Shown piece by piece: positions 1,334 through 59,244 of a stretch of DNA of 64,000 bases. Numbering within the stretch: position 1 is the first letter of the stretch; each line of letters begins with the position of its first letter. The position numbers were made by a program, and so were the translations under genes. Under the pieces are notes generated by a model. That model worked only from the letters and a program-made list of their open reading frames with translations. It did no database searches and was not told where the DNA came from. Source of the DNA: Mobula hypostoma (lineage: Eukaryota); contig NC_086097.1 of assembly GCF_963921235.1 (NCBI RefSeq), positions 127,474,001 through 127,538,000 of the forward strand, read 5' to 3'.

Positions 1334-1371
1334 CAGTTGACGTTTCAGGCCGAGACCCTTCGTCAGGACTA
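1334..1371 (-). ncRNA. Minimal hammerhead ribozyme in the 3' pLTR, with a stem I mismatch
   Basis: Reverse complement of the same motif, reading GTC^AACTG instead of GTC^GACTG. Confidence 0.8.
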
Positions 1372-5588: not shown

Positions 5589-5626
5589 TAGTCCTGACGA
5601 AGGGTCTCGGCCTGAAACGTCGACTG
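5589..5626 (+). ncRNA. Minimal type I hammerhead ribozyme in the inverted pLTR
   Basis: TAGTC-CTGACGA-AGGGTCTCGGCCT-GAAA-CG-TC^GACTG: intact core, stems I and II, and an ACGT palindrome in place of stem III; predicted cleavage after C5621. Confidence 0.85.
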
Positions 5627-9379: not shown

Positions 9380-9520
9380 CAGTCCTGCTGAAGGGTCTCG
9401 GCCCAAAACATCAACTGGTTATTCATCTCCATAGAAGCTGCCTGACCTGCTGAATTCCTCCAGCATTGTGTGTGCGTGTGTTACTCTGGATTTCCAGAAT
9501 CTGCAGATTTTCTCCTGTTT
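9380..9520 (+). mobile_element. Penelope 3' fragment starting at a decayed hammerhead
   Basis: cagtcctgctgaagggtctcggcccaaaacatcaactg followed by the typical tail. Confidence 0.75.
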
Positions 9521-11599: not shown

Positions 11600-13495
11600 A
11601 ACACAGTGGACATCGACTTCATGAAGGTCTGTGTGGATGAGTGTGTGCCTCTGAGAACATACCAGACAGACCCAAACCCAAAGCTGTGGATGAACCAGAA
11701 GATTCATAGTCTACTGAGGGCTGGATCTGTGGCATTCAGAACTGGAGATCCAGAACTACGCAAACTATGGAAGGCTATTTTAAGAGTGAAAACTCATTCT
11801 AACTGAAGTTGGAGTGTGAATACGGTGCACGTCAGCTCTGGCAGGAGTTCCAGGCCATTACTTCTGACTAACGTCATGAACGGCTGTGATACTTCACTCC
11901 CAGGTGAGCTCAATGCCTTTATGCACACTTTGAAAGGGAGAATAAACTACACCTGTGTGAATCCTTGTCGCATCCTGTGATCTCGGTGTTGGAGGCAAAC
12001 GTCAGAACAACTTTCAAGAGTGAACCTTTACAAGACATCGGGCCCTGATGCTGTACCTGGTAGGGCACTGAAAACCTGTGCCAACCAACTGGCGGGAGTG
12101 TTCAAGGACATTTTCAATCTCCTGCTTCTGCAGTCGGAGGTTCCCACCTGCTTCAAAAGGCTGACAATTGTACCAGTGCCCATGAAGGGCAAGGTGAGCT
12201 GCCTCATTGACTATCACCCTGTGGCTCTCACATCTACCGTGATGAAGTGCTTTCAGAGGTTGGTCATGGGTAGAATCAACTCCTCCCTAAACAAGGACCC
12301 GCACCCGCTGCAATTTGCCTATCATACAGTGGATGCAATCTCACTGGCTCTCTGCTCAGCCTTGGACCACATGGACAATAGTAATACCTATGAGAGGTTG
12401 CTGTTTATTGATTACAGCTCAGCGTTCAACAGCATCACATCCTCAGTACTAGTCAACAAACTCCAAAACCTGGGCCTCTGTATCTGCAACCTTGACTTCC
12501 TCACCAGGAGGTAATAGTCAGTGTGGATCAGAAATAACATTTCCTCCTTGCTGACAATTAACTCTGTGTACCTCAAGGACGTGTGCTCAGCCCACTACTC
12601 TACGCTGTTTACACCCACGTCTATGTGTCTAGGCACAACTCAAACGGCATCTATATATTTGCTGATGACACAACCATTGTTGGCAGGATTTCAGATGGTG
12701 GTGAGAAGGCGTACAGGACTGAGATAGATCAGCTGGTTGAGTGGTGTTGCAACAGCAACCTTGCACCCAATGTCGGTAAGACCAAAGGATTGATTGTGGA
12801 CTTCAGGAAGGGGAAGTCGAGGGAACACATACCAGTCCTCATCGAGGGATCAAAAGTGGAAAGGGTGAGCAGTTTTCAGTTCCTGGGTGTCAACATTTCT
12901 GAAGATCTATCCTGGGCCCAACATTTGATGCAATTACAAAGGCAGCAAGGCAGTGACTATATTTCATCAGTAGTTTGAGGAGACTTAGTATATCACTGAA
13001 GACTCCCACAAATTTCTACAGATGTACCATGGAGAACGTTCTAATTGGTTGCACCATCATCTGGTATGGAGGGGCTACAGAAAGTTGCAAACTCAGCCAG
13101 CTCCATCATAGCCTCCACAGCACTGAAGACATCTTCAAAAGGCGATGTCTCAGAAAGGCACCATCCATCGTTAAGGACCCCCATCTTCTCATTGCTACCA
13201 TCAAGGTGGAGGTACAGGAGCCTGAAGGCACAGACTCCACATTTCAGAAACAGCTTCTTCTCCTCTGCTTCCAGATTTCTAGATGGACAATGAACCCATG
13301 TACACTACCTCACTATTTAAAAAATTTTTTGCTCTCTTTTTGCACTACTTATTTAAATATATATATATATTTCTTATTGTAATTTATAGTTTTTTGTTCT
13401 ACCATATAATATGTAATTACCGTTTATTTCTGCTGCAAAACAGTAAAATTTGCAACATATGCCAGTGATATTAAACATGATTCCTATTCTGATAC
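11600..13495 (+). mobile_element. Rex1/Babar-type LINE, decayed RT
   Basis: LKTCANQLAGVFKDIFN, FIDYSSAFN and IFADDTT motifs; tail ending in gattct-like repeats. Confidence 0.85.
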
Positions 13496-13699
13496 TTAAA
13501 TTTATTATCAAAGTAGTTACGTGTTACCTCAAGATTAATTTTCTTGCAGGCATTTACAGGAAAAAGAAATACAGTTGTATTTTTATGAAAAGCTATACAT
13601 AAGCAGACAAAGACTGGCCACCATCAATGTACAGAGGAACTGTGCAAGTAAAAATAGTACTGAGAACATGATTGTAAAGTCATGAATTGTAGAATGGCA

Positions 13700-19859: not shown

Positions 19860-21510
19860 CAGAAACATAGAAAACCTACAGCACACTACAGGCCCTTCTG
19901 CCCACAAAGCTGTGCTGAAAATGTCCTTACCTAGGGTTACCCACAGCCCTCTATTTTTCTGAGCTCCATGTACCTGTCCAGGTGTCTCTTCCACACACTC
20001 ACCACTCTCTGCATAAAAAAACTTACCCCTGACATCTCCTCTGTAAGCACCTTAAAACTGTGCCCTCTTGTGCTAGCCATTTCAGCCCTGAGAAAAAGCC
20101 TCTGACTATCCACACGATCAATGCCTCTCATCAACTTATACATCTCTATCAGGTCACCTCTCATCCTTTGTCGCTCCAAAGAGAAAAGGCTGAGTTCACT
20201 CAACCTATTGTCATAAGGCATGCTCCCCAATCCAGGCAACATTCTTGTAAATCTCCTCTGCACCTTTTCTATGGTTTCCATATCCTTTCTGTAGTGAGGA
20301 GACCAGAACTGAGCACAGTACTCCAAGTGGGGTCTGACCAGGGTCCTATATAGCTGAACATTACCTCTTGGCTCTTAAGTTCAGTCCCACGACTGATGAA
20401 GGCCAATACAGTGTATGCTTTCTTAGCCACAGAGTCAACCTGCACAGCAGCTTTGAGTGTCCTATGGACTCGGACCCTAAGATCCCTCTGATCCTCCACA
20501 CTAACAAGAGTCTTACCATTAATACTATATTCTGCCATCATATTTGACCTACCAAAATGAACCACCTCACACTTGTCTGGGTTGAACTCCATCTGCCATC
20601 AGCCCAGTTTTGCATCCTATTGATGTCCCGCTGTTACCTCTGACAGCCCTCCACACTATCCACAACACCCACAAACTTGGTGTTATCAGCAAATTTACTA
20701 ACCCATCCCTCCACTTCCTCATCCAGGTCCTTTATAAAAATCACAAAGAGTAGGGGTCCCAGAACAGATCCCTGAGCCACACCACTGGTCACCAATGTCC
20801 ATACAGAATATGACCCATCTACAACCACTCTTTGCCTTCCGTGGGCAAGGCAGTTCTGGATCCACAAAGCAATGTCCCCTTGGATCCCATGTTCCCTTAC
20901 TTTCTCAATAAGCCTTGCATGGGGTACCTTGTTAAATGCCTTGCTGAAATCCATTTACACTACATCTACTGCTCTACCTTCATCAATGTGTTTAGTCACA
21001 TCCTCAAAAAATTCATTCTGGCTCATAAGGCACGACCTGCCTTTCACAAAGCCATGCTGACTATCCCTAATCATATTATGCCTCTCTAAATGTTCATAAA
21101 TCCTGCCTCTCAGGATCTTCTCCAGCAGCTTAACAACCACTGACAGACTCACTGGTCTATAATTTCCTGGGCTATCTCTACTCCCTTTCTTGAATAATGG
21201 AATAACATCTGCAACCCTCCAATCCTCCACAACCTCTCCCGTCCCCATTGGTGATGCAAAGATCACCGCCAGAGGCTCAGCAATCTCCTCCCTCAGTAGC
21301 TCAGGGTACATCTTGTCCAGTCCTGGTGACTTATCCAACTCGATGCTTTCCGAAAGCTCCAGCACATCCTCTTTCTTAATATCTACATGCTCAAGCTTTT
21401 CAGTCTGCTGTAAGTCATTCCTACAATCGCCAAGATCCTTTTCCATAGTGAATACTGAAGCAAAGTACTCATTAAGTACCTTTGCTATCTCCTCTGGTTC
21501 CATACAGACA
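19860..21510 (-). mobile_element. CR1 LINE 3' part (RT) in EEF1E1 intron 3
   Basis: [30 protein letters not shown]; 3' end at agaaacatagaaa. Confidence 0.9.
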
Positions 21511-22689
21511 GATCCCTGAGAGATGATACTGAAGTAAAGACAAGATTGAGTTTGCTTGTAATTGAGATGTTTTGGATTAGTCCCTTGAACATTAGGAAGT
21601 TTTTGAGAAGAACAGGCCGTTCGGCCCAATTCTAATGCAGCTGGACCCATTCAGAAAGTCTCAAAAACATGTGAAAAGGGGATAAAAGGAACAACTTCCA
21701 ACAGGGTTGCCATTCCTCTGTGGGGTAAAACTGAGAGCCTTGTGCAAAGTGCATACTGACCCTCTTCAAAAGTCACTACTCAGCTGCTGGGTTCTGATGA
21801 GAATAGAGCCATGGAGCAGAAATAATAATAATAATTATTGATTCTATATGGGAAATTCTTTTGTTATAGCAGCAATATTTAAAAACACACTTAACAGTGT
21901 GCAGGCTTAACTAATAGTATACCAATAATGTACCAATGTGCAATAATAATATTACATCATGATGTGTGTTCTCCCGTTGCAGAGATGAACTGCTGTATAT
22001 GCTTATTGCACTTGGTTTTTGTAATGATCCTTGTGACAGTGAAGCTGAGTGAGCCTGTTCGAAATGGCCCTCTGCTGCCTTTTCATGAAGAGGATCTGCC
22101 AGATTGTTTATAAAGAAATGTCTATAATGGTTTTGAACTTACATGAGGGCTTGGACTTCAATGCTTTAATTCTCCCCAGGCTTCCAGAAGTGCAAACAGT
22201 TGATTTCCAAAGGAACCTGACATTTTCCACCAGCACAATTTAACCCAGAAGTTCAATTCAGTAAGATCTGGCACATTAAACATGCAACCTCCAGTGAAAT
22301 TTCAATTTTTTGACACAACTATGAGAAGAATACCTAAATGTTAATCTGTAATCTCAAGTAACAACTGAGTGGGAATGGAACCCTTGCAACAATTTGGAAA
22401 ACTTTCTAAATTATCTCGTTTCAACTTTTGGGTTTTAAAGAGCCCAGCGCTTGCTATTGTATCTTCTACTTCACTGGAGCCTCACACCATGCATCAAATG
22501 TAACGCACCGAACATTATTTTACAGCAAAGGTCAGCGTATTACACAGTTTATTATCCAAATGGATCATTTCTATCAAATTACATCAGATTCTTCTATTGT
22601 ATTTTTTCTCAGTCTTTATTAGGGTAAGAAACAAGTAGTAATTCCTTCCTAATGTTGATTATTTCTCTCACTGATGCTCATGATCTAAT

Positions 22690-24521: not shown

Positions 24522-25239
24522 TGCTTACTGCAAACCGTTATAATGCACTTGCAGCATACACTTTACAATGAAATTAGGGCCTTTAGCCCAGCCCACGCTA
24601 TTAACTGTCCATTTAAACTAATACTAAATGCATCCCTGTTTTGACAACCCAATTGACATCAATTATACCCAGATTCTACCACTCGCTTGCACATTCGGGT
24701 AAATTTACAGCATTCAGTAAACTGACAGACCTGCATGTCTTTGGGATTTGGGAGGAAACCAGAGCACCTTAAAGAAATCCATGTACTCAAAAGAAGAACC
24801 TGCAAACTTGACATGGATAACACTCGAATTCAGGATTGAAACCAGATCCCTGGTGCTATGAAGCAACAGATCTACTAGGATAAAGAACAATACAGCACAG
24901 GAACAGGTCCTTTGTGCATTAAACAACACACAGAATGCTGGAGTAACCTTTAGCGCTGAGACCCTTGATCAGGACTGGAAAGGAAAGGGCAAAAGCCAGA
25001 ATAAGATGGAGGGGGAGTGGAAAGGACGAGTACAAGCTAGCAGGAGATAGGTAAAAACCAGGTGAGGGGGAAGGTGTGTGGGTGGGACAGAGTTTCTAAC
25101 AGGTGGTAGTTGGAGAAGGTAAAGGGCCCTGTGCCTTGTGCCAAACTAATTACATCTAATTAAAGTAATCCTTTCAGACTATGCAAAGTCTATATCTCTC
25201 CATTCTCTGACTATCCATGTGCCTATCCAAGAGCCTCTT

Positions 25240-25482
25240 AAACACTTCCATCACATTAACCTCCACCACCACCGGCAGCACAAACACTTCCATCACGTTA
25301 ACCTCCACCACCACCGGCAGCACAAACACTTCCATCACATTAACCTCCACCACCACCGGCAGCACAAACACTTCCATCACGTTAACCTCCACCACCACAA
25401 ACACTTCCATCACGTTAACCTCCACCACCACCGGCAGCACAAACACTTCCATCACATTAACCTCCACCACAACCGGCAGCAC
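25240..25482 (+). repeat. 42-bp minisatellite, 6 copies (one shortened to 33 bp), inside a CR1 3' end
   Basis: Unit aaacacttccatcacRttaacctccaccaccaccggcagcac at 25240, 25282, 25324, 25366, 25399 and 25441. Confidence 0.95.
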
Positions 25483-28111
25483 ATTACAGGCACCCACCAC
25501 TCTCCGGTTTTAAAAAAATAGTGCCCTGCACATCTTTAAATTTCACCCCACCCTGTAAAGAGAAAAAGGAAATAAAGGTTGTCCTTTAGAGATGCATTTG
25601 TAATTCTTGAACAAAGTATCAAATTATGAGACTTTTCAGGATTTACCTATTTGAGTTCCTTACATTTAAAAAAAATATACCATACAATGGCATTAACCAC
25701 CCTGCCATGCATCCCAAAAATTCATTTTGAATTGGCAACAGCAAAAAAACAAGTTCAGCAATTCTTAGATTAAAATGTTGTAGCCACTACTATTCTCATA
25801 TCAACAATGCTTGCAATTGTTGATTCGGCAAAGGGTATTTTGATTGAGTACTGCCAACAGCCTTGAAGAAGCACGACTAGTTGAAATCTTTGATCATCTT
25901 CCTTCTATCTAAGTAAGCGACACAGTCCTTGTGGGCAATAAAACATGAATGCAAAGTTACCCCAGTCATAATCACAGCTAAAGTTTGGCAAACACATTAT
26001 CGAAATTTGAAAAGGATTTATTTTTGATTGCTTTGAATTGAATGTTTAGTGGCTCTAAAGAGGTTTTGAAGTCAGTCACGACATTAAGACACCTAACCTA
26101 TTACATGTAAACATTTAACAGCATTATTGGAAAGAGTTCCACAGACATTTCAGTACTGTTAATACAAGCTTCTTGAATGTTAAATCAATGGTGACTATAA
26201 ACATAACCTAAAATGTTTTCAAGTTCAAGTTTAAATTATCATTTAACCATACACAAATATCCATTAATACAGCCAAACAAACAGTGTTACTGATGCAAAA
26301 CACAGTACAAACAGTCATACACATCACAAGGCACACACAGCACATATCAGACAGCACTAAAATACAATCACACAAAAAAATAGTCCAGGTCCCCAAGTCC
26401 ATGAATGTTGCAGCAGTCTGCAATTAAACACAATGCATCAACTTCTGGCCAGCGAACACTGGGGAACAGCACCAACTCTGCTGCCTTTCCCTTGGGCAGC
26501 CAGAAGCAAGCAACACTGCAGCTTGAAGCCTAGACCTTGCCATGATCGAGGCCACACAGCTCCCCAGCCGCCCGCCAACAAATCAATGAATCGGACTTGC
26601 AGAAGCCGCTGCATCCGAGATCGTTGCCAACTTACTGGAAGATGTATATTCTCAACCCGTATATGCAAATGTATATGCCTCACTTTATACACGGATTACT
26701 TAACTATTGAGCTGAATCTATTGGGGAATTTTTAAATACAGAGCCTAATTATTTAAATTTGTTTTTGCTGCTAAGAAAACAAAATATTAAGTAGAAACCG
26801 CAGAAGCTAGAAATCTGAAATAACAACATAAAATGCTGGAAATATTCAGCAAGTCACCAGCATTTGGACAGGATGAAACACTTAACATTCCAGGACTAGG
26901 AAACAAAGACTCAAACTTAAGTTGCAGAAAAAAGAAAGGTAGAGAGAACAAATAGAATGCCTGATCAGACAGGATGGTGAAAACTTGCTCACAGGAGCTG
27001 TTCTGTCTGGGGAGATGTAGACAGGAGATGAGTGGATTCACAATAGAAAATAAAGATAGAATTAGAGATACTTTGATGTCAATGGCTAGAAATCTAAAAT
27101 AAAATGGAACTTTGGAAATACCTCTGAGGTATACAGAGAAGAACTAAGTTAATGTCACAATCTTTCATTTGGTCAGCTCAGGTACGAACTGGATAACATT
27201 TATCTGAAATTGTTGAATTCAGTGTAGATTGTAACATGTCCAATGAAATGAGATTGGGCCCTATTAGAACAGTATAACAAGTCAAAAAAAGGCCAGGGAA
27301 TGGATGGAACATTTAGATGATGAGTAACTGGAAGTCAGGAGTTATAGAGTGAATGGAGATGTCTGGTAATGCAGTCACCCAGTTTACAACAGGTTTCACA
27401 AATGTGGAGACCATGTCGTGCGTAGAGAATGCAGTACACAAAAGTGAATGTACAAGTCAATTGTTGCATCAAAATATTATGTATGGAACCTCACGTTCTT
27501 TATAGATATAATAAGTGCCACAACTTCAATCTCCACCAATCATTCTACATTCTTCCAACCTAAATAATAACGTTCCAGAAATATCCTAAAAGTAAATCAA
27601 TGTCTGCATGTTTCTGTCCAAATATGGTTAAAACAAGGATGAAGGTAATCAACTTAACTTGAGAATGAGTGGATAGAGTTGATGCAACATTTGTGAATGT
27701 GGACTGGCTTATGAATTACTATACTTACTGTGATTTTCTGTAGTAATTCCCTTCCAAATTTAGGATAGTTGGTCCTGGGTCAAAACTTTAAGGGTTTGCA
27801 TAGAAATTTTAAAATTTACAGTTTGAGAGCACTGTTCACTTACATGCAAAGAGAAAGTAGACTATTCAAAAGATAAAACAGAAGCCATTAAATGCACCTT
27901 GTTACATATCCACCGGATTCTTCGATACATTTTACTGCATTGAAACACAAAGGTGTATGACATTTTATCATCTTTTCTGATTAAAAAAAACTTTCAATTG
28001 ACCTTTATGCTGTTGGAATTAACCATCTTTCATAGCAATTAAACAGGATCCATATATCCTATTCAGAGAAAGTGCAAGAGATAACTTTCCAAGGTTCTAC
28101 AAATCACTTAC

Positions 28112-32200: not shown

Positions 32201-32284
32201 AGGTGTTTGCGAAGAAAAAGCTTTGCTTTTCAGGATGTATGTTGTATACATTTCTCTAACATTAAATTGTACCTCTGAACCTTT

Positions 32285-32680
32285 GAAAGCGAAGTGGGGG
32301 AAAGAGAAGGGAAAGTTGAGTTTGGAGGTAGGATAACGTTAAATATGGTGGAAATTGCAGAAAATGATGCATTGGAAGCACAGGTTATGGGGTGGTAGGT
32401 GAGAACAAAAGGAAATCTATCCTTGTCAAGGTGGCGGGAGGATGGGGTAATGGAAAATGGAGGAGACGTGGGTGAGGGCAGCATCAATGGTGGAGAAGGG
32501 AAACTTTGTTCATTGATGGAGGTCAGTTCTGATGTCACGAAAAAGAAAGCCTCAATCTGGGAACAGATGTGGCGGAGATGAAGGAACTGAGAAGAGGGAA
32601 TAGCATTTTTACAGGAGACAGGTTGGGAAGAGGCAACGTCAAGATAGCTGTGGGAATTGGTATATTTATAAAAAGATATT
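32285..32680 (-). mobile_element. Decayed Penelope RT C-terminal fragment
   Basis: SHSYLDVASSQPVSCKNAIPSSQFLHLRHICSQ, homologous to the young element. Confidence 0.8.
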
Positions 32681-34090
32681 TTTATAACCATGGTGGTGTC
32701 CTTCTTCCCTTTGAAAATTTCTTCTTATTTGGAATATGTCTTGCACTACCCTTATTTTTCGCAAAAACTCCAGCCATTGCTGCTCTGCTGTCCTTCCTGC
32801 AAATGTCCCTTTCCAGTCAATTTCCGCCAGTTCCCTCCTCATGCCATTGTAATTTCCTTTATTCCACTGAAATACTGACACATTGGATTTTATTTTTTCC
32901 CTCTCAAATTTCAATGTGAACTCGATCATATTGTGTGAACTGTTCCCCAAGGGTTCCTGAACCATAAGTTCTTTTATCACCTCCAGACCATTGCACAACA
33001 CCCAATCCAGCATTGCCGATCCCCTAGTGGGCTCAACAACAAGCTGTTCTAAAAAGCCATCTCTTAGGCATTCTACAAATTCTCTCGAGGTCCAGTACTG
33101 ACCTGGTTTTCCCAATCCACTTTCATGTTAAAATCCCCAATGATTATCATGACATTGCCTTTCTGACGTGCCTTTTCTATCTCCTACTGTAAATTATAAT
33201 CCACATCCCGGCTGTTGTTTGGAGGCCTGTATACAACTGCCATTAGGGTTCTTTTACCCTTGCCATTTCTTAACTCAACCCATACAGACTCTACACCTTC
33301 CAATCCTATGTCATCTCTTTCCAATGATTTAATATTATTTCTTGTACACAGAGCCACACCACCCCCTCTGCCTACTAACCTATATTTCCGATACATCGTA
33401 TATCCTTGGGCGTTCAGCTCCCAATGGCAGCCATCCTTTAGTCATGTTTCAGAGATGGCCACAACGTCATATTTGCCATCTGTAGCTGAATTTCAAGATC
33501 ATTCATTTCACTCCTTATGCTGCGTGCATTCAAATACAACACCCTCAGTCCAGTATTTGTTGCTTTCTGTTTTAACTGCACCACGCCTTTATTGCTCTGT
33601 AACTCATGACACTGGCTTTGATTAAGCCTCATCTCCTGCCTGTTCTTTCTATAATCTCTGTTGCATGCTATCTTTGATTTATTTGTTTTCCCCTTCCTCA
33701 GCCCTATCATTCCGGTTCCCATCCCCCATCCAAATTAGTTTAAATCCTCCCTAACAGCTCTCTTAAATGTGACTGCTAGGATACTGGCATCTCTTTGAGT
33801 TCAGGTGTAACCTGTCCTTTTTGTACAGGTCGTACCTCCCCCAGAAGAGGCCCCAGTGATCCAGAAATTTGAAGCCCTGCCCCCCTACACCTTACATCAG
33901 TCTCTCAGCCACACATGAATACATTGATCATGCTATTCTTGCACTTGCTAGCACATGGCACAGGCAGCAATCCTGAGATTACTACCCTAGAGACCCTACC
34001 TTTCAGCTTCCTCCCTAACTCCCTGAATTCTCTCTTCAGGACCTCCTCCCTTTTTTTTTAACCTATGTTATTGGTGTACCAAGACTTCTG
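32680..34090 (-). mobile_element. CR1 LINE 5'/endonuclease part
   Basis: LRVLYLNARSIR, GRGGGVAL, VVYRPPN, EPTRGSAMLDWVL. Confidence 0.88.
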
Positions 34091-34529: not shown

Positions 34530-34883
34530 CTGCAAAGTCAGAAAAAGATTATTTAACAAGCCATGCTCCTATAGTGTATTGTATAAACATTTATAAACTG
34601 TAAACCAATGGATGGGCTACTCAAGAAAATAGCTGTACATAATACTTTATTGATCAAATATTTATCAGTTTTTAGGTATAGCGGCTGGGTGGACTAGTGA
34701 GCCCATCAAATGGGATTTTGCTTTTAATATGTGCACTGGCTGTTTTAACAGCTTCAGATTACCCTCGTACCTATAGACCGTCAGAAGAAAAGTAAGTCAA
34801 CACAAAACAAATGATATTATCCTAGGCTCCTGAACAGCATGAAAAATTTTACTTGCCTCAACGTTAAACTGACTCCATAATCT

Positions 34884-35075
34884 GTTGCAAACACGAGGAA
34901 ATCTGCAGATGCTGGAAATACAAGCAACACACATCAAAGTTGCAGGTGAACGCAGCAGTCCAGGCAGCATCTCTAGGAAGAGGTACAGTCGACGTTTCGG
35001 GCCGAAACGTCGACTGTACCTCTTCCTAGAGATGCTGCCTGGACTGCTGCGTTCACCAGCAACTTTTATGTGTGT
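34884..35075 (-). mobile_element. Miniature fold-back Penelope insertion (tail plus palindrome) in EEF1E1 intron 1
   Basis: TSD TCCATAATCT at 34874-34883 and 35076-35085; arms of about 75 bp around a 1-nt centre at 35001; homologous to 1237-1350. Confidence 0.9.
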
Positions 35076-35934
35076 TCCATAATCTATCGATTCACTTTCA
35101 AGGACTCTACAACTCACGTTCTTGTTTAAAATTATTTATTTATTTATTATTGGCACGATTTGTCTTCATTTGCACATGGGAATTTGTTAGTCTTTGTTAT
35201 GTACAGCTTTTCATAAAGTTTATCATGTTTATTTTCTTGTAAATGTCTGCGAGAAAATGAATCTCAGGTAATATATGGTGACACATACATATTTTGATAA
35301 TAAATTTACTGAACTTTGAATAATTGTTTATCTCTTTTCTTGATCAGCTTGTATATCTAAACTTCAGGGAGGTTTGCAGGAAGAAGTCAACCAGTGTGAT
35401 AAAGTGTAAAAGCTTTTCCCACTTTTATTCCCCTCCAGCAAAAACAAAAGCTGTAATTCCAAGTGGTATCTTTTAAAAATGTAGTTTAAATGATAATTTC
35501 AAATTGGGGAAGATCCAAGTGTGTACCTTAGTGTGTAGAGGTGGGGCAGGGCTTGGTGGTGGGAGTTGGGACAAATGTGGGGAGCAAAAAAGAACAGTAA
35601 TGTGTCAATAGGTGCTTGATAGTATGTGTGGACTCAGTGGGCCAAAGGGTCTATTTCTGTGCTCTGATCAATCTCTATACTTGCTCTGTACATTCTGCTA
35701 GTATACAATTATCTTTAATGAGAGTTGGTCACTGGGTCCCAGATCAGAAAATTGCAGTTCACTAACCTGCAGAGCAGGTCAAAGCAGTTAGCACCGTACA
35801 CCCACGGCTGCTCTGAAAATACTGGTGGCTGAACTCCATAGATGGTCTTGCAGAGTTAACGAGAATGCAGAGGAAGGAATTGGCAACACAAAAAGGGTGT
35901 TGTCACAATTTCACGGGAAGGGGGTCAGGCAAGT

Positions 35935-38520: not shown

Positions 38521-39589
38521 CAGCTGTCTTGTTCAAGTTCATTGTCATTCAACTGTACACATATTTACAGCTAAACTGAACAACGTTCCTCTGGGGCCAA
38601 GATGCAAAACACAGTACATACATAAAATACAGTACATAAAGTTAACAGATAATATTAACAGATACAGGCAGAGAGACGGATGATGGGGTGGGGGGGGTGG
38701 TGGTGCAGTTTCTCCAGAACTATTGAGAATCCCGTCTCAGCTTTCCGAAGAACTGTACATGGTTGCGGAGCAGAGACTGAACCCATTGTAGGTGCCATGT
38801 CTTCTGTGCTGTGCATACATCATGTGTATTATGGTAACTAGTCATATTAGTGGGGGCATGGTAAAGGTGAAGGGAATAAGTTTCATATTCAAGCTTATTT
38901 CAGGGCAGTTTGTAGCTTGGAGGTCATACCTTTGCTCAGATAATGCTCAATAATGTTTCACTGTAGGTTTTCTAATTGCAAATAAAGGATCGAAATAAAG
39001 AATTGGACTTTTGGAGCAATCATGGGAGCTCAGGGCATGTCACAGGCAAGAGGCAATTGTTTTGTTTGATCTTGGATCAGTCTTTCGCCACTACACCCTA
39101 CATCATAAGCTATGTTATCAATTATCTACACTTTCTGAAAGATCAGAATATTAGAAAAGGTGACAATTGCTGATAACATTAATCTAATTGACTAATCCTC
39201 AAATAAAGAAGCAGCCCACTGGCTCTTGGAGCAAAATCCCGATGATATTGGGAATAAGAGAGTTGAGAAAGTCTCTTGACCATCCTTTAATGAGAACATG
39301 TGCTATTCTTCTAAACTGGAATGTCTAATCAAGTCAAGTTTATTGTCGGTAAGGTACAATTAAGAACTTGCATCCAGCAGCATCACAGACACATTGAGTC
39401 AGGCAATACGCAGAACATGAATAATACATAAATTATACAGGCTTTTCTTCAGTCATAATGGATAATTGACCTGAAATGTTAACTGTCTTTCTCTTTCCAT
39501 ATTGTGTCTGATCTGCTGAGAATCATCATCACTTTTTAAAAAAATATTCTGCTTTTCAAATGGATCACAGCTAACTTTTCCAACACCAC

Positions 39590-40511
39590 ATTCTCTGCTA
39601 CTTCCTCCATTTTCAACAGGATCCTACAACTATACACATCTTTACTCCAACCCCCCCCCCCCACCAACGCTCTCCGCTTTCCGCAGGGATTGCTCCCTCC
39701 ATGATTTTTTTGTCCATTCGTTCCTCCCCACTAATCTCCTTTCTGGCAAGTGACTGAAATGCTACACCAGCCCATTCATGTCCTCCCTAAAGTCCTTCCA
39801 GGTGAGGCAGCAACTTCACCTGCAACCTGTTGAGGTTGTGTACTGTATCCAGTGCTCCCGATGCAAGCTCCTCTACAATGGTGAGACCCAATTTAAATTG
39901 GGGGATGGCTTTGTCGAGCACCTTAGCTTCATCCGCCAAAAGCAGAATTTCCCAGTTACCAAACATTTAATTTCTATCCCCTCCTGACATGTCGGTTCGT
40001 GGCCTCAGCTTCTGCCACGGTGAGACCACTCTCAGGATGGAGGAGCAACACTTCATGTTCCCTCTGGGTAGCCTCCAACCTGATGGCATGAACATTGATT
40101 TCTCCTTCTGGTAACTTTTTTTCTCTTCTTTTCTTTTCTCCTCCCCCTCCACTCTTCATCCATTCTCTACTCTTTCCTCTTACCCACTTCTCCTCACCTG
40201 CCTATCATGTCCACCTGGTGCTCCCCCTTTCTCCCATGGTCCACTCTCCTCTCCTATCAGATTCCTTCTTCACCAGCCCTTTACCTCTCCCACCAACCTG
40301 GCTTCACCTTTCACCTTCTAGCTTGTCCTCTTTCCACTCCCCCCAACCTTTTTATTCTGGCACCTTCCCCCTTTCTTTTCAGTCCTGAGGAAGGGTCTTG
40401 GGCTGGGATGGCAACTGTTTATTCATATAGACGCTGCCTGACCTGTAGAGTTCCTCTAACATTTTGTGTGTGTCACTTTGGATTTCCAGCATCTGCAGAA
40501 TCTCTTGTGTT
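39590..40511 (+). mobile_element. Older 5'-truncated Penelope copy with decayed GIY-YIG, decayed hammerhead (about 40381-40417) and tail
   Basis: VVYCIQCSRCKLLYNGET; ctgggtagcctccaacctgatggcatgaacat shared with the young element; tail tttccagcatctgcagaatctcttgtgttt. Confidence 0.85.
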
Positions 40512-40779
40512 TAACTTTTCTCAATCTCTTATGAAGCTGGGATATAGAGTCTAATAGCAATGAAGCATGCTCTTCCCTCTTTGACAGTTTATTCCTCTCC
40601 ATAGATGCTGCCTGACCTGCTGAGTTCCTCCAGCAATTTGTGTGTCTTGCTTCACCCCACCAAGTCTGCACTGACCCTCAAGTGCCAACTTGCATTAATC
40701 CTACACCAATCACCATTTATTTTGTTCTCCCCCCATTCTCATCAGCTCTCTCTCTCATCTCTCACTGACGCACACATTA

Positions 40780-41555
40780 TTGAATTGAATTGAATTTATT
40801 CCTTGCATCCTTCACATACACGACGAGTAAAAATCTTTATGTTATGTCTCCGTCTGAATGTGCAATGTGCAAATTATAAATAGTATGTACAGTAAGATAT
40901 ACAACAGAACAGTCAATATAGCCTAGAAATACAATTGTGTCAGCGTGAATTAATCAGTCCGATGGCCTGGTGGAAGAACCTGTCCCGGAGCCTGTTGGTC
41001 CTGGCTTTTATGCTGTGGTACTGTTTCCTGGATGGTAGCAGCTGGAACAGTTTGTGGTTGGGGTGATTTGGGTCCCCAATCATCTTTTGGGCCCTTTTTA
41101 CGCATCTGTCGCTGTAAATGTCCTGAATCGTGGGAAGTTCACATCCACAGATGCGCTGGGCTGTCTGCACCACTCTCTGCAGAGTCCTGCGATTGAGCGA
41201 AGTACAGTTCCCATACCAGGCAGTGATGCAGCCAGTCAGAGTGCTCTCAATTGTGGCCCTGTAGAAAGTCGTTAGGATTTGGGGACTCATGCCAAACTTC
41301 TTCAACCGTCTGAGGTGGAAGAGGCGCTGTTCTGCATTTTTCACCACACAGCCGGTATGTACAGACCCCGTGAGATCCTCAGTAATGTGTATACTGAGGA
41401 ACTTGAAGTTGTTCACCCTCTCAACCCCAGATCCATTGGTGTTACTGTCTCCATTCCTCCAGTAGTCCATAACCAGTTCCTTTGTTTTTGCGACATTGAA
41501 AGAGAGGTTGTTTTCTTGACACCACTGTGTCAGGGTGATTACTTCTTATCTGTAG
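40780..41555 (-). mobile_element. Rex1/Babar LINE 3' fragment
   Basis: VERVNNFKFL...QRLFHLRRLKKFG...WYGNC; (attga)n tail. Confidence 0.88.
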
Positions 41556-43298
41556 GGGAAATTTGCAGTGAACAAGTGGCCTTCAAACCTGCTCATCACT
41601 GGGCAGTGGAACCACTATGGAGCAACTGGAGAAGGTACGTGTAGTCACCAAGAAAGTGTTCTAATTCCACACTGACAGCACTCAGAAGTCAGGATTGAAT
41701 CTGGGTCACTTGAGCTGTGTGAGGGAGCAGCTCAGCATATCTTCACAGGACAATCGCTCACTCTGGAATTAACCTTGCAAATCTCGGATGCTGAACTGTA
41801 GAATATATGAAATAGGAACAAGAGTTGTTCACCTCTCCTCAAGCTTTCTTGGCCTTTCAATCGGATCTTGGTTCCACCTGCATTTTCCTCTATTACCTCC
41901 ATAATCTTTGATTCCACTCAGGTCCAAAAATATGTTTGTTTTCTTTTGCACATTGCTTGCTTATCAGTCTTTGTTTGTCTGCAGATTTTTATTGATTCTA
42001 TTGTATTTCTTTGTTCTACGGTGAAGGCCCGCAAGAAAATTAATCTCAGGGTAGCATTTGGTGACATATATGTACTTTGATAATGCATTTATTTTGAACT
42101 TTGAACCTAGCAGTGTGGGACCCAAGGCTTCTGTACTTCCTGCCCATTTACATTAAACCTATCATCTAATCTGTGCTTTAAAACTGTTAGCCAATGCCAG
42201 GATGGGAATGGTGAATTTGTTTTCCTCGTTAGTGAAGTATTAATGCTTTTTTGTTGTTATACAAAGCAATGTAGGAATGGTTTTACACAAAGTGGTGCAA
42301 ATACATAATTTCTCCATTGAGTATCGTGTAGTTCCAAGATTATGCTGGCGTATCAACTTTAACAGAGTGAAATAACACAGAGTTATCGTACCAAGACTCC
42401 TTCTCTGTATTACAAAGAACCTTGAAGCGAACACAGATGGATGGCCAATTTCTAAATTCATGCTGTATCAAAATACAGGTAATAACTTCAGGAACACTAG
42501 CTCAGATTGGTGGGAGAACTGCTCCAGCTACATTGTTCTGCTTTGACTCTGAATTTATAAATAGAGAATTCTCCTCTAGCCCATGCTTGTCTTCCTGATG
42601 TGATTCATTGCCTCATCCTCTGTAACTTCATGTGACTCCATAACTTATTTGGTTTACTGTGCTTCTCAAGTTCTGATGTTCTGTGCATCCCAGATGGTGA
42701 CTATGCTAGAAATATCTGGCTCTGCTATTTCTGCTCAGAAACTCTCTCTCTCCATTAACTCGCTTCTGAAGACAACTCCCATTTACACGTATCTTCCTAA
42801 TATCTCTGTAAGCGGCTTTGTGGAAGTGGCTGGAGTTTCTACGGTTGTAGGGTTAATTTAGATCAAGAATTCTGTACTAATTGCATGTTAGTTGTAGAAT
42901 ATTTAAGCTTGCCCTCACTGGAGCACTCATTTTCCTTGTAGGAGTGTCACCATTTATGTAAAGTGATCTCAAATGCTTGCAAGAGTTTCTCCTGCCAGTC
43001 ACCATTGCCAGTAAAGTCTGGGTCATCTTCCCCCCACCACCTGACTAGCATTTTCTTGCCTCAAACAATGTCCAAGTCTCTCTCACTGATTTCAAAGTTC
43101 AAAGTAGGTTTATTATCAAAGTACATACATATCACTGTATACTTCCCTGAGAATCATTTTTCTTGCAGGCATTCACAGTAAATGTGAAGAAACACAATAG
43201 AATCAATGAAAACTACACAAAAAAAAGATGGGCAAACAATGGGAAAAATACAATAATTGTGCAAATACAAAAAGAAAAACAAATTATTAATAATAATA

Positions 43299-44181
43299 AG
43301 AGGGGTGATTGATAAGTTCGTGGCCTAAGGTAGAAGGAGTCAATTTTAGAAAAACTAGCACATTCATTTTTCAACATAGTCCCCTCCTACATGTACACAC
43401 TTAGTCCAGCGGTCGTGGAGCATACGGATCCCTTCTTTGTAGAAGTGGTCCACTGCAGGGGTGATTGATAAGTTCGTGGCCTAAGGTAGAGGAAGATGAG
43501 TTGAAACTCTAGGAAGAGGTGCAGTCGACGTTTCAGGCCGAGACCCTCCTGACGAAGGGTCTGGGCCTGAAACGTCGACTGTACCTCTTCCTAGAGATGC
43601 TGCCTGGCCTGCTGCGTTCACCAGCAACTTTTATGTGTGTTGCTTGAATTTCCAGCATCTGCAGAATTCCTGTTGTTTGAGTTGAAACTCATCCACTTAG
43701 TCCAGCGGGTGATTGATAAGTTTGTGGCCTAAAGTAGAAGGCAATGAGGAGAAACTTCAAACTTTCTGCATTTTCACTCAAAGTGTTGAACTGTACGTGC
43801 ATGTAATGAGAGCGTCTTGGACGTCTAAGTGGTCCACAGCAGGGGTGATTGATAAGTTTGTGGCCTAAGGTAGAAGGAGATGAGTTATACAGCTCTCGTT
43901 ACATGCACGTGCAATTCAACTCTTTGCATGAAAATGCAGAAAGTTTGAAGTTTCTCCTCATTGCCTTCTACTTTAGGCCACAAACTTATCAATCACCCCT
44001 GCTGTGGACCACTTCTGGAGGTCCAAGACGCCGACTTCTACAAAGAAGGGATCTGTATGCTCCACGACCGCTGGACTAAGTGTGTAAATGTAGGAGGGGA
44101 CTACGTTGAAAAATAAATGTGCTAGGTTTTCTAAAATTGACTCCTTCTACCTTAGACCATGAACTTTTCAATCACCCCTCG
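43299..44181. mobile_element. Mariner-type MITE with TA TSD and multiple internal TIR copies, inserted in a Rex1 LINE (about 43095-45090, minus)
   Basis: TA|(c/a)GAGGGGTGATTGATAAGTT...AACTTTTCAATCACCCCTCG|TA; long terminal inverted arms. Confidence 0.85.
43510..43677 (+). mobile_element. Miniature Penelope insertion: short inverted arm, hammerhead core and tail, nested in a MITE
   Basis: TSD TGAGTTGAAACTC at 43497-43509 and 43678-43690; core CTGACGA...GAAACGTC at 43549-43576; tail ending CAGAATTCCTGTTGTT. Confidence 0.9.
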
Positions 44182-45165
44182 TAGATAAATAAATAATATT
44201 AAGAACATGAGTTGTAGCGAAAGTGAGCACATAGTGAGGCTGTGGAATTCGGCTCAGTGATGTAGTGAGTGAAGTTATGGTTGGGGGGTAACAACTATGC
44301 ATAAACCTGGTGTGTGGGACCTAAAGTTTCCTGTACCTCCTTCCAGATGGTAGCAGTGCGAAGGGAACATGACCTGGATGATTGCTGCTGCTTTGTTGTA
44401 AGTGTGCTCATTGGTGGGGAGGGCCCTACCTGTACTGGACTGGGCTGTATTCATCACCTTTTGTAGGCTTTTCCATTGAAGGGCATCAGTGTTTCCATAC
44501 CAAGCGGTGAAGCAACTAGTTAGTATACTCTCTATCATGCATCTATAGAAGTTCATCAAAGCTTTACTTCACAAGCTTCTAAGAAAGTCAAGGTGGCTCC
44601 TTGCCTTCTTTGTAATGGCACATGTGTTGGCCCAGGACAGATCCTTTGAAATGGTAACACAGAGGAATTTAAAGTTATTGACCTGCTCACCTCTGATTCC
44701 CTGATGAGGACTGGCTCATTGACCTAAAGTTTCCTCCTCCTGAAGTCAATAATCAGCTCCTCGGTGTTGCTGACGTTGAGTGGGAGGTTGTTGTTGCGGT
44801 CCCATTCAGCCAGATTTTCAATCTCCCTCCTAAGTGCTGTTTAGTCACCAACTCTGATTTGGCCAATGACAGTGGTGTTGTTAGCAAACTTAAATATAGT
44901 ACTGAAGCTGTAATTAGACTCACAGTCATAAGTATAAAGCAGGTAGAGGAGGGGGATGAATATACAGCCTTGTGGTGCACTTGACTGACAGAGATTTTGG
45001 AGGAGATGTTGATGCCAATCTGAACTGACTACAAGTGAGGAAATTTGAGGATTCAGTTGCACAAAGAGGTATTGAGGCCCCAGGTCCGATGGTGTCAAAC
45101 AGAGCAATAGTTCCTTCCTTGCAGTGGGAAGAAGGACTCTGGTCACTTCCTGCCTCTATGTTCAA

Positions 45166-46625: not shown

Positions 46626-48394
46626 TTTGATTTTTCAGCATTGTTTACTTGTCAGACATGGACTTGCCAAAATACAGCTGTTCCCAATTAACCCTCCTTA
46701 TTTTCTGCCTAATATTCTTGTAATTTGCATTGCTTCAGTTTAATACTCTCCCAAAACTTCCATACTTAAGCTTGTCTGTAGCTATCTTATAATATGTAGG
46801 ACTAGATGAGCCAAAATCTCCTACAATTAGACATCAGGAATATTTAAGCTTATAGTGTCATCAGCCAGTACTTCTTGAACCATGTCTCAGTATTATTCTC
46901 TCCAACAGACTGGAAAATGGTTTAAATTAACTTGGGTGGTTTATAAATAAAAACTTATAGTATCTGACTGCATCTCTTTCTGCAGAGACAGACAGATGCT
47001 AGGGAGTTTCCCATACTAAACATTGTTGTAGTGGTACAACACATGATACGTTCCTTAAGGAGGTATGGCCATAAAGTAGCTTGGGTGGTTTCCAACCATA
47101 TTGTATATGACACGTTGATAATACTAGTGCCGTTGTCTAGTCAGGCAGATCATGCCATTTGGCCTTGACTACACCTACTTTATTAATACTACTCGCCTCC
47201 ACCTCTGTAATATTCCTCCTCTTCAACACCCTGCCTCGGCGCATCTCCTGGTGAGTCTCTTCTTCATGTTTTCATTACCTCAGGGCTGATCTTTCCTGCA
47301 AGTTTACAGTTAGCATCCACATTTCACTCTGTACACTTGAACTCAGATTCCGGTACCCTATAAATGCAGCTCCCTCTCACTAATTCGTGGGGCAACAATT
47401 TAGACAACTGACACATTTTCTTTTAAGAAATAAGTGCAGAATGAAATAATGTTTACATATTAATAATGGAGCGTTGACTCAGTTCAGTCATGGCTAGTAT
47501 AAAAATATTCCTTCATCAAGGCAGTTATTTAAAAAATAACAGATTGTAATAATGAAAACAATGATACTAACAGAAATTTATTTTTAGTTATTACAATCCA
47601 AAACCAAAAATCTAATTTCATGAGCATGAATTATGAGGAAGTGAGAAGGAGAAAAGAAGTCAGTTTTTGTTTGTCTTCATTTCATGTTGTAATTAAATCT
47701 CTAAGGTGTCTTTGCATGAAAGTACTTTGAAGTGCAGGGACAGCAGAATCCTACACTGCCAACATGTTCTGCAGTGCACACAAAGTTTTAATTCTCACTT
47801 GTCTTTTCAATTACAGGTATTTTGAACAATGTCTACGGCTTTCCTCAGAAAATCAATGCTACCAAAAATTACTTTCAAATTGAAAACATGGTTTGGGATA
47901 ATTGGTTTCTATGCTCTATAGCAACACAAACCAGCCCTCATGTTCGTTTACAATATAAATGCAGAAATCAAAATGTGCATTAGGTGAAACTCACTGTGAT
48001 TATTTGGCGATTAAATTGCTAAAGGCTGTAAAAATTGCTCGATTTGCAACATTTCTGCTGTCAGCAAGTACAATCTAATCTATTAAACTATTAGGGCACA
48101 TAAACTTACAGCTTTGAAAACAAGGAAAATAAACAACTTATTTACTTTTGCCTAATTGGATTAAAGGTAGTCATTCAGCAAATATTCAGATAAATCACAC
48201 TCAGCAGCTGAGGTGATACACAAGTTCATGAGTGGACACAGTTGGAAAGTCTGGCCGTTAAATGTTTTCATTTTCACAGACCTTCTTAAGTCTATTTTGT
48301 TCATGAGTTGGAAACTACACAAAAATAATTTGATATAGTAAAGATAGCATTGTAATGAATGGCATCAAAACAAACAAGACTGATAAGAAAGACA

Positions 48395-48520
48395 CAAGAG
48401 GGAATGCAGATGCTGAAAATCTGCAGCACACATAAAATGCTGGGAGAACTTAATGGGACAAGCAGTGTCTATGAAGGAAAATGGACAGTTCACCTTTCGG
48501 GTTGAAACCCTTCATCACAC
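48395..48520 (-). mobile_element. Decayed Penelope tail/hammerhead fragment; similar remnants at about 24920-25130, 26795-26880, 40590-40650 and 59060-59210
   Basis: tgcagatgctgaaaatctg...cataaaatgctgg...tttcgggttgaaacccttcatca. Confidence 0.6.
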
Positions 48521-51656: not shown

Positions 51657-54600
51657 CAAGTCTTTCCCAACCGTTTTTAGGCCAACACTCCACTAGAGCA
51701 CCTTTTTATTTGCCAACACCCCCTAAAGCACCCTTGTAATTGTCAATGCCCTCTAAAGCACTTTCGTACTTGCCAACACCCCTCTTAGGCACAATATACC
51801 TTCCAGTGCCCCCATAGTGTAAAAGCATGTCTACCATATGTTAACATGAGAAAATTTATTCTGCTTTAAATTTTTATTTGTCTTTAAACCTGGCTACACA
51901 GTACCTGTGCATTGTACAGCAGCTTCGATATCATTTTTATCCTTAAGCTTGATGATTTTTAGCAAGAGTTGAAATATCAGGTTCAAGTTGTGACAGCAAA
52001 AGCCTTACATAAGTCCCCATGTGTAACAATGTCCAAGCGGTTTCTGTTTTTTGTGAGTATGTGGTTCCCTGCACTGTAGCCTCTTTTAACAAGTTAGGAG
52101 GATGGAAATGCAATGAAGAGCAGTTTGGCTCTTCTCCAAAGACCAGGAAACTTCCTCCTGCAGTACCACAAAAGCTGATGTTTTTGAAAAGCATTTTTGC
52201 TTCTTCATCATTCTGAATTTTGATAATTTCTTCTTGCAAGGTCTCTTCCTGTTCTTTCACCTTGCAAAGAAATGGGTTAATTACCCAGTCCGGAATTTCC
52301 AGATTGTTCAATTCCTTGAATAGATTCTGAAAATCCTTCTTCAGTGAGTGCAAGTGTAAGCAGTACTCTTGCAAACCACCATCTGTGAAGGCAAGTGCTA
52401 TACTTTCCATGCAGGGAAACTTCTCCCAATGTTTTGCTTATATATTTCCAATTTTTCAATAAAAGCGGACATTACACTTTTTGCCTGGATTAAACTGAAA
52501 TTCTCACCCTGCAGTTTCATATTTAGAGCGTTAATTTGGTCATACCTATCAGCTAAGTATGCCCCATCTCCACCTAGAAGTTCAGTCTTGTTTCCCAAGC
52601 TTTTGTCGACTTTGAGCAAAAATTCAACCACAGTGTTAAAAAGATCAAAGAACCATTTTAAGTAGCAGGGTTTTGCCAGCCAACTCACTTCAGTGTGAAG
52701 AAACAAGTGTTCAAACTCTTCATCATTATCTTGGCATAACTGACAAAATATTCTGCTAAGGATGAGCCTTAATTTTGTTGATAACAGATATTACAAGAGT
52801 CATGCTTGAAAAACACCATTGGCTGAGGTTTTTGGCTGCGAGATGTTTACAATGAATCAGAGAATGGTTTGCAAGTTGACTTGGAATTTCTTCTTTCATA
52901 AGTGCTCCTAAACCAGCATGGTGACCTGTCATATATGGTGCTCTATTTGTTACATAAGAAAACATGTCCTTAATCAGAATACTTTTATCCTCAATGACCC
53001 TATACAATTACACCAACACCAGGTAGATCGGCTCTGCGCGGAGTCAATGTGAGGAAAGCAGCTGGCCCAGATGGAGTCACCGGAAGGATTCTTAAGGACT
53101 GCGCAGATCAAGTAGCGGGAGTATTTACTACCATCTTCAACCGCTCGCTACTACAGTCTGTAGTTCCCACCTGCCTTCAGTCAGCCACAATAATACCCAT
53201 ACCAAAGAAAGGTACAGTGAACTGCCTTACTGACTATTGCCCAGTTGCTCTAACTCCTATCATATGAAATGTTTTGAGAGACTCATACTGTCTTATATTA
53301 AGTCTGCCATACCTGCTGACCTTGATAAATACCAGTTTGCGTATCGTGCAAACAGATCGACAGAGGATGCAGTCATCACAGCTCTCCACACAGCTCTTAC
53401 AAACCTGGATCTGGATAACACCTATGTAGAAATGCTGTTTGTGGACTACAGCTCAGCTTTTAATACAGCTCATCCCCTACAAACTGGAGCAACCTGAGCC
53501 TTGGCAGCTCACTGTGCTCAGGGATACTGGATTTTCTGAGTAACAGACCCCAAAGTGTCAGGATGGGAGAACAGACATCATCTACTCTCATCCTGAACAC
53601 TGGTACACCACAGGGGTGTGTTCTCAGCCCCATCCTCTATTCTCTTTTCACCCATGACTGCTCTACCATTCACTCCACCAACACCATTGTCAAATTTGCT
53701 GACGATACCACCCTAATAGGTATCGTATCAGACTGTGATGAGACAGCCTATAGGGAGGAGGTACAGCATTTGACAGAATGGTGTTGTCATAATAACCTGG
53801 ACTTGAACATCACAAAAACTAATGAGCTAATAGTAGACTTCAGGAAATCAAAGCTTGTTGAGCACTCTGCTCCGCACATATACGGGAAAGAGGTGGAGAG
53901 GGTGAAGAGTTTCAAGTTCCTCGGCATCCACATCTCAGCTGACCTCACCTGGACTGCCCATGTCTCTTACCAGGTGGGGAAGGCCCAACAGAGGCTCTAC
54001 TTCCTAAGGAAGCTAAAGCACGCTCTCCTCCCTCATAACCTGCTGATCAACTTCTATGGGACAACTATAGAGAGCCTCCTGATGTATTGCTGTGCAGTGT
54101 GGTTTGCCAGCTGCACAGAACAGAACAGGAAGGACTTGCAGCGGGTGGTGAGGGTAGCAGAGCGGGTTATTGGCACAACATTACCCTCCCTCAGAGACAT
54201 TTATACTGGCAGACTTCAAAAGAAGGCTACTTGTATTTCAAAGGATCCCACTCATCCTGGACATCACCTGTTTTCCCCTCTACCTTCTGGGAAGAGATAC
54301 AGAGCATTAAGGACAAAAACAAAGAGACTCCTTAACAGCTTCTACCCATAAGCAGTGAAATGTATAACACCCCCTTCCCTTCTCCTGCCCCCCTCCTAAG
54401 ACGGCGGCAGCTAAATGCATCACACTTCCAGGAATGGCAGGTGTGCTATCCCCACATCCATATATTATTAATTTTGGACTGCACTCCTGAAGTTTTAGAG
54501 TTTATTTTATGTATATATTCTTTGTCATGCTGCAAAACGTTGAGCTGCTAAACTGTGTTTTATTGCTCCACAACAATGACAATAAAGATATTCTTCTTCT

Positions 54601-58220: not shown

Positions 58221-59244
58221 TTTCTTGCAGTTACAAAATCAAGAGATTAATGTGACTCAGAAAAGCAGAGATTTTTTCATTATTCCACTTAGCTGTGGTT
58301 GGTATTTAAGTTTTATAATCATCATTGCTCTAGTAATTACAGTTTTAAAGAAAATTTGTGAGCAAAGAACATGTTAAGGGAATAAAGTTGGTTTAGTGTG
58401 AGCCTATGAGATTACTGCTAAATATGCAATTTATTTTACTTCTACAGTACAATAATTACAGCACAGAGATCCAAGCAGATGGCAGAATATAAATCATAAT
58501 CAGCAATGACTAGGCTGAAGGTAGATTTTACTGTTGTTTGCAAAATATTTGTTTCACTGTGATATTTTGCATCAGGGGTGGGGACTGACGGCAACTGTTT
58601 GTTCTTCTTTGATGAATATTCGTACTTTAATATTGAATCAAAAGTTTATCCACCACTCTTTAGGACTTCTGTAACACTTTGTATTCATATGCCTTAGCAA
58701 AATGATATGAGAACTATCATGTGCTTTAGGAAAGAAGCTGAAGTAAATGCTGCTTTAAAGAATATCTTAAAAGGGGTGAAGGGGTGAAGCAAGAGCTGAC
58801 GGGTGAATGGGTGGATCCAGATGAGGGGGGATAGGTTCTGAGAATGAAATGAGAAGCTGAGCTGTGATAGGTGTAAGTAATATAAGGCTGAAGAAGGTGG
58901 AATCTGATAGGAGAGGACAGTGGACAATGGAATAGAGGGAAGAAGGTGAGGAGCGTGGAGGGAATGTGTGGATGGTGGGCTGATCAAGAGGTCAGGAAAG
59001 GGGAAAGAGATGGGTGATGAGGGCTGCTGGGATAAGGGTTACTGTGAAAAAGAATTTCTTTCCAGTCCTGATGAAGAGTCTCAATCTGGTCTGTGGAATC
59101 CAACGCTTCCTGTTTTTCTTCTTTAGATTTCCTGCATATGCTTATTTATAAAACATTCTTCGAAATCCACAGATGCATGAAAGCTGAAATAAAAGTCAGA
59201 AGTGTTGGAAGCATTTTTGTCACAGTTCACTTTAAACTAATCTA

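Follow-up and report, generated by a model that had tools for sequence, protein, structure and literature searches.

The 192-bp insertion at 34884-35075 of the window (the whole 64-kb stretch of DNA that was analysed) is almost certainly a dead-on-arrival, extremely 5'-truncated insertion of a Penelope-like element (PLE), in the form of an inverted copy plus a one-sided tail. It was probably made by two separately primed cDNAs that annealed at a self-complementary 9-mer.

Anatomy of the mini-insertion and its parent family

The 192-bp insertion, hereafter the mini-insertion, is composed as follows; its positions equal large-element coordinates plus 33652.

34874-34883, forward strand: left target-site duplication (TSD), 10 bp, identical to 35076-35085
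34884-35005, reverse strand: main arm, a 5'-truncated 3' end of the element that spans hammerhead loop II through the tail terminus
34884-34925, reverse strand: one-sided PLE tail, about 37 homologous nt plus 5 nt, in the main arm only
34884-34888, reverse strand: five extra bases past the tail terminus, compared with 4713-4747
35002-35076, forward strand: inverted arm, without tail, with a family minor allele at 35067
35076-35085, forward strand: right TSD, sharing its first base with the element (1-nt microhomology)

The TSD, the arms, their ends, the junction, and the differences between arms are read directly from the sequence. An insertion with its own 10-bp TSD, as the earlier note proposed, is borne out by exact copies at 34874-34883 and 35076-35085, with 192 bp inside instead of the 190 bp given there; such a 10-mer match was found in 54 of 20,000 random pairs of 30-nt windows about 200 nt apart. 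The arms proper (34926-35000 and 35002-35076) are 75 nt each, with two mismatches and a 1-nt centre at 35001, and 42 nt at the left end (34884-34925) are unpaired. The tail, defined according to PMC8557442, PMC3846280, and PMC11167929, is also a variant of its own, as had been claimed, distinguished at 1242, 1243, 1249, and 1268 from the other two young copies, and it contains a perfect 10-bp palindrome at 34901-34910. The inner two of the five extra bases fit the native continuation of the element, and the outer three may be untemplated or a subfamily variant. The main arm matches the large element (1236-1356) at 88% over 121 nt and the third insertion (43564-43679) at 93% over 116 nt. The minor allele at 35067 accounts for 21-23% of summed depth in the public runs X1 and X5, whose contigs were aligned to 1177-1776 of the large element. 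The left flank of the mini-insertion is unique within the window, and part of the right flank (35159-35320) belongs to a dispersed repeat, with about 70-73% likeness to 41935-42105, 43091-43228, and 13497-13615.

Two other young insertions of the family are present in the window:

1225-5700, reverse strand: large element, a parent-type 4.5-kb insertion with a 12-bp TSD (1225-1236 and 5689-5700)
43497-43690, forward strand: third insertion, with a 13-bp TSD and a main arm (43547-43678) ending at site 1

The large element consists of a main copy (1237-4768) and an inverted arm (4768-5687) ending at site 2. Its ORF, interrupted by frameshifts, encodes RT and GIY-YIG; the Pfam matches (RVT_1, E 1.2e-5; GIY-YIG, E 7e-4) are both under the curated cut-offs, and the translations contain a DKG motif and two cysteines ahead of YIG. 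A CX4CxxC linker is found in the ORF at 1668-2600, and a CX2-5CxxC linker between RT and endonuclease is described for Neptune and is common to Nematis (PMC8557442). The parent family is almost certainly an endonuclease-bearing PLE of Neptune/Nematis architecture, the pair of clades being taken from the linker motif. At 5589-5626, parsing by hand against PMC4209133 gives an intact hammerhead, predicted to be a minimal type I motif in the terminal repeat; an Rfam search returned no hammerhead match at E up to 1 and one chance match elsewhere, and an NCBIfam search returned no match. Endonuclease searches of sequence collections found no relative, and a 24-nt pattern had 0 matches in genome and viral contig collections. 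In a metagenome scan with a 20-nt pattern, five alignments among at least 130 loci reach 30 nt, the longest being at most 32 nt, and these are chance matches.

In the large element, the ORF-bearing copy starts within its own upstream tail (4738-4768) and so lacks an upstream pseudo-LTR; the inverted arm meets the main copy in this same stretch through 1-nt microhomology. Elsewhere in the window, the frame at 32230-32724 resembles a decayed C-terminal part of a PLE RT and is by eye similar to the ORF at 2095-3303, and 25226-25525 is a CCA-rich tandem array of 42/33-nt units. Open frames at 11981-12514, 20955-21650, 40940-41545, and 53464-54351 are, presumably, non-LTR reverse-transcriptase fragments, judging from their motifs.

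The third insertion has an inverted arm of 38-41 nt, which ends 82-85 nt inside and is joined through 1-nt microhomology. All three young insertions carry an inverted 5'-truncated neighbour copy within one TSD of variable length (12, 10, and 13 bp), and five of the six target-element junctions have 1-3 nt of microhomology, the left end of the mini-insertion having none. The main arm of the third insertion starts at 43547 (1368; see also 5545-5593), directly after AG behind a long pyrimidine tract, and this start, which coincides with the 5' boundary of hammerhead helix I, resembles a splice acceptor; in D. virilis, an intron ends at helix I (PMC4209133). Tandem joints among those listed run from 1370 to 1236 (five contigs, X1) and from 1370 to 1260 (X5), which suggests a recurrent 5' boundary. 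The third insertion is nested in an element (43283-44197) whose inverted arms are 164 nt long (91%) and which has several copies of a 60-nt end sequence inside; the whole looks like a DNA-transposon MITE cluster. Furthermore, an older-subfamily PLE insertion at 39572-40520 has a 9-bp TSD (39572-39580 and 40512-40520), ends at the full tail, and has seven TSD bases in common with the beginning of the TSD of the large element; a search of its left end found no inverted arm. Older decayed hammerhead-plus-tail copies are located at 9381-9520, 48394-48517, 59062-59098, and 26798-26899, and a TSD search of the first two found none.

Arm ends and the two start sites

Site 1 is the terminus at 1236/1237 in large-element coordinates, where the main arms of all three young insertions end (that of the mini-insertion overshoots it by 5 nt); three older copies, with ends near 9520, 40512, and 48394, also reach it. 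The inverted arms end further in, at 5687 in the large element (1273, possibly 1272), at 35075/35076 in the mini-insertion (1275/1274), and at 1319-1322 in the third insertion, leaving unpaired tails of 36-37 nt, 37-39 nt (from 1236), and 82-85 nt, respectively; counted from its true left end at 34884, the offset of the mini-insertion is 42-43 nt. The earlier note placed the ends of the first two arms at the same site, 37 and 38-39 nt from the terminus. These lengths are reproduced when counted from 1236, but the ends are 1-3 nt apart and do not fall on the same base. Its caveat that the third insertion uses a different site, such that two of three agree, is confirmed by the end 82-85 nt inside.

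Taken alone, the 2-nt agreement is weak evidence: with uniform ends, the chance that any two of the three inverted-arm ends fall within 2 nt is 0.05-0.13. The tails of the large element and the mini-insertion fit the 30-40 bp of the PLE tail and that of the third insertion (82-85 nt) does not, and the chance of two of three inverted arms ending in this literature-set window is 0.01-0.03, again with uniform ends. The preferred second priming site that the earlier note inferred about 37 nt inside is right, but is already known as the PLE tail. In D. virilis, this tail is a repeat of 34-37 bp (PMC2377424); in A. vaga, it measures 31 bp and is found on one inverted repeat, with TSDs of 8-10 bp (PMC3846280); and in general it is 30-40 bp long, optional, and at one end (PMC8557442); the last source ascribes it to endonuclease-mediated resolution. 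In vitro, the RT of the PAc element has two internal start sites flanking the tail, both target strands are cut and extended, and the template is uncleaved RNA, with a dimer predicted (PMC11167929). The offset of about 37 nt in the mini-insertion is this known tail, and its in vitro explanation is the two RT start sites.

The contigs of X1 and X5 bear on the same point. Six joints of the long-range tandem or strand-switch type with a terminal 3' end, classed by hand among the 15 of 193 and 12 of 217 joints listed, end at 1236 (three), 1260, 1271, and 1274; this count leaves out the internal skips and nine short go-backs (about 30-60 nt). Neither 1237 nor 1273 occurs among the 24 of 2,263 loose ends listed. 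The joint ends support two start sites, without being a histogram. An old copy at 40585-40652 was removed from the count of site-2 ends, its alignment continuing weakly into decayed tail, and depth steps (lower over the tail, with a drop beyond 1376) were set aside as confounded by edge effects and by older subfamilies diverging near 1370. A stem-loop marking site 2 is unsupported (z = -0.89).

The inverted junction and its origin

Two features lie at the centre of the mini-insertion:

34997-35005, no strand assigned: junction 9-mer, self-complementary as 4+1+4, centred at 35001 (1349)
34986-34998, reverse strand: 3' half of a minimal hammerhead, mapped from 5589-5626 against PMC4209133

The junction 9-mer covers loop II, the 3' strand of helix II, and G12-A13 of the core, and the family has it natively only where 1347 carries the minor allele (20% of summed contig depth in X1, 29% in X5). 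The earlier note set the fold-back centre in a palindrome of stem II; a native 4+1+4 palindrome is indeed there, but it is not the pairing of helix II. A turn at the ribozyme cut site is ruled out, the junction centre lying 10 nt 5' of it. As RNA, the 9-mer is unfolded (0.0 versus -3.7 kcal/mol for helix II), and as a DNA hairpin at a cDNA end it has about -0.1 kcal/mol. Its homodimer, at about -12 kcal/mol, is the lowest among the 1,050 stop positions scanned, a ranking of positions at which the last two bases pair and of which the rank is more meaningful than the model value. The large element and the third insertion lack the 9-mer and have asymmetric junctions with 1-nt microhomology, so that one of three insertions has a palindromic junction. 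The inner ends of both short insertions, four of four, fall within 1345-1369, inside the hammerhead motif, a clustering that may be due to chance with n = 2 insertions. The hammerhead half comprises the GAAA core, a helix III stub, and the 3' strand of helix I, with the cut site between 34991 and 34990, spanned by a 6-bp palindrome at 34988-34993; the CUGANGA core is absent from both arms. Because each arm keeps the 3' half only, the mini-insertion cannot be a ribozyme.

The arms of the mini-insertion differ at 1283, a non-CpG transversion that the third copy shares and that makes up 23% (X1) and 21% (X5) of depth; a second difference, at 1292, looks private. The arms of the third insertion differ at 1333, a family allele (34% and 49% of depth), and at 1352, which looks private, while those of the large element have 13 differences within 1177-1776, including family alleles at 1424 (non-CpG, 12.6% in X1 and near zero in X5) and at the CpG sites 1338 and 1465, as well as 1525, private to the left arm, and 1548, next to a gap. 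Allele frequencies here are contig depths summed at 80% likeness, with subfamilies mixed, and the family alleles come from the 40 of 325 variants listed. There is one informative site per short insertion, for which the test for two templates, picked post hoc, gives a rough chance of 8-9% each. Both arms of the mini-insertion carry an allele at 1307 that is absent from the other four arms, which fits a single template equally well, and the family alleles could stem from later gene conversion by other copies. Nevertheless, the differences suggest that the arms were copied separately and then joined, rather than folded back.

In the two-cDNA reading, the RT-endonuclease would cut the target strands 10 nt apart, and each target 3'-OH would prime its own cDNA. 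The first, giving the main arm, would start at the outer RT start site and include the tail, and the second, giving the inverted arm, would start about 37 nt further in and lack it. The templates would be two slightly different terminal-repeat copies from one subfamily, supplied by two pseudo-LTRs in one transcript or by two transcripts, and both cDNAs would read past the uncleaved hammerhead site and then halt early. Because they have the same polarity, they could anneal only at a self-complementary sequence; the loop II/helix II 9-mer would pair 8 of 9 bases between them, and fill-in and ligation would fix a near-perfect palindrome. Two templates and cDNA-cDNA annealing are the steps that we infer here, and together they would account jointly for the tail offset and the symmetry. 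The model is built on three two-armed insertions in the 64-kb window and on in vitro data from a Poseidon element, which belongs to another clade. If annealing is the rule, the palindromes at 34901-34910 and 34988-34993 are predicted alternative junction sites.

Snap-back, or self-priming, in which one nascent strand (cDNA, or a copy made on an antisense template, the origin suggested for A. vaga) folds at the palindrome and copies itself, is a possible but fairly unlikely origin; the tail-less end would then come from endonuclease resolution or from a stop about 37 nt short. The symmetric centre with its 1-nt loop in a native palindrome speaks for it, as do the alleles at 1307, 1333, and 1347 common to both arms of the mini-insertion, the recurrent palindromes at A. 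vaga inverted junctions, read as self-priming (PMC3846280), and the view of the tail as a product of endonuclease-mediated resolution (PMC8557442). However, arms made in this way should match at birth. Snap-back is disfavoured by arm differences at family-polymorphic sites in three of three insertions and by a terminal hairpin that is so weak as DNA and unfolded as RNA. The asymmetric junctions of the other two insertions also speak against it, and it requires a separate reason for stopping where RT is known to start. The snap-back at the ribozyme invoked by the earlier note is disfavoured by the arm differences, a turn outside both the cut site and the helix pairing, and two of three junctions without a palindrome. 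Moreover, that note combined it with second priming, whereas the two are alternatives: priming at site 2 yields a second cDNA, not an arm copied by fold-back.

Within the reading of two separately primed cDNAs, an unlikely, more specific version has two RTs acting asymmetrically, using the outer site at one target end and the inner at the other, on different repeat copies, with joining at the best self-complementary sequence. If so, a subfamily with the palindrome allele would yield many independent, near-identical 190-bp hairpins, mimicking a MITE by convergent integration without self-propagation, and would be a possible source of hairpin RNA.

It is improbable that a longer two-armed PLE insertion lost its centre by microhomology-mediated deletion, or that gene conversion reshaped one arm, although either would account for a 4+1+4 junction together with differing arm alleles. 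Deletions within palindromes tend to break symmetry rather than create it; in addition, the TSD of the mini-insertion is exact. Very short PLE insertions also form directly, de novo insertions in Chlamydomonas having a median of 128 bp (PMC9977147).

That the 192-bp palindrome is a mobile, MITE-like non-autonomous family copied as a unit is highly improbable. In favour are its short, palindromic, TSD-flanked form, its own tail variant, and an extremely abundant parent family (192,538 contig records in X1). Against it, the 64-kb window contains a single copy, the junctions of the other two insertions are different, and none of the best-supported 15 of at least 193 joints is a strand switch near 1345-1353. 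Its inverted repeats are also not terminal, TSD lengths vary, and neither arm includes the CUGANGA core or the upstream repeat. PAc RNA has to reach +172, past the start site at +111-118 (PMC11167929). The integrated mini-insertion may, by analogy, lack sequence required for moving again.

MITEs have terminal inverted repeats, the fixed-length TSD of a DNA-transposon superfamily, and many near-identical copies. The mini-insertion resembles them in being short, hairpin-shaped, non-coding, and TSD-flanked, and 'MITE-like', the term of the earlier note, is apt for its shape, but no self-propagating family is seen in the window or among the joints listed. It differs from MITEs in its retroelement origin, in 34884-34925 being unpaired so that the inverted repeats are not at its termini, and in TSD length, which is 9, 10, 12, and 13 bp in the four TSD-bounded copies; no homogeneous family of near-identical units is seen, the palindrome having a single copy in the 64-kb window. 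The mini-insertion is not a MITE.

Comparison with known systems

The tail offset and the palindromic inverted junction have both been published already, and the mini-insertion adds one more example to a known type of insertion, showing PLE integration anatomy cleanly in miniature. It is also a warning for annotation that PLE scraps can be mistaken for MITEs. The part worth pursuing is the two-template signal: should arm differences at family-polymorphic sites hold genome-wide, the family, with its very high copy number, would allow self-priming and two-template priming to be told apart in vivo. Literature searches, covering mainly titles and abstract openings and few subscription journals, found neither a palindromic MITE-like PLE family nor any account of inverted PLE arms arising from two templates.

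Pen2a_Av of Adineta vaga (PMC3846280) and the scheme of PMC8557442 share with the mini-insertion the head-to-head inverted 5'-truncated copy, the tail of 30-40 bp on one arm, the TSD of 8-10 bp, and the palindrome at the inverted junction. In contrast to Pen2a_Av, the mini-insertion is only 192 bp long, is without an ORF or full pseudo-LTR, and has its junction in the hammerhead motif; its arm alleles suggest two templates, whereas PMC3846280 proposes self-priming. The formation of the inverted structure is called undefined in PMC8557442. PAc, a Poseidon element of Anolis carolinensis, has two tail-bracketing RT start sites downstream of the hammerhead, and, as proposed for the mini-insertion, both target strands are cut and extended on an uncleaved RNA template (PMC11167929). 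It belongs to a different clade, Penelope/Poseidon being without the Zn-linker, and the available part of that study gives no model of inverted junctions or of two templates.

The minimal hammerheads of metazoan PLEs (PMC4209133) share with the parent motif the core, the extra base between A9 and helix II, and the zero-loop palindromic helix III. Close pairs of PLE hammerheads on opposite strands, about 100-700 bp apart, are already described there as well. The mini-insertion differs in that each of its arms retains just the 3' half. Non-LTR retrozymes are defined by tandem head-to-tail copies with complete hammerheads (10.64898/2026.07.22.740005). The arms of the mini-insertion are head-to-head and their core is missing.

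L1 twin priming (PMC2837659) offers a further comparison. In the model of Ostertag and Kazazian, the second primer reportedly invades upstream on the same RNA, giving arms without overlap. The arms of the mini-insertion, in contrast, copy the same 3' region and so form a palindrome, for which two repeat copies would be required. Common to both are priming from both target ends, an inverted 5' segment, a junction with microhomology, and a TSD.
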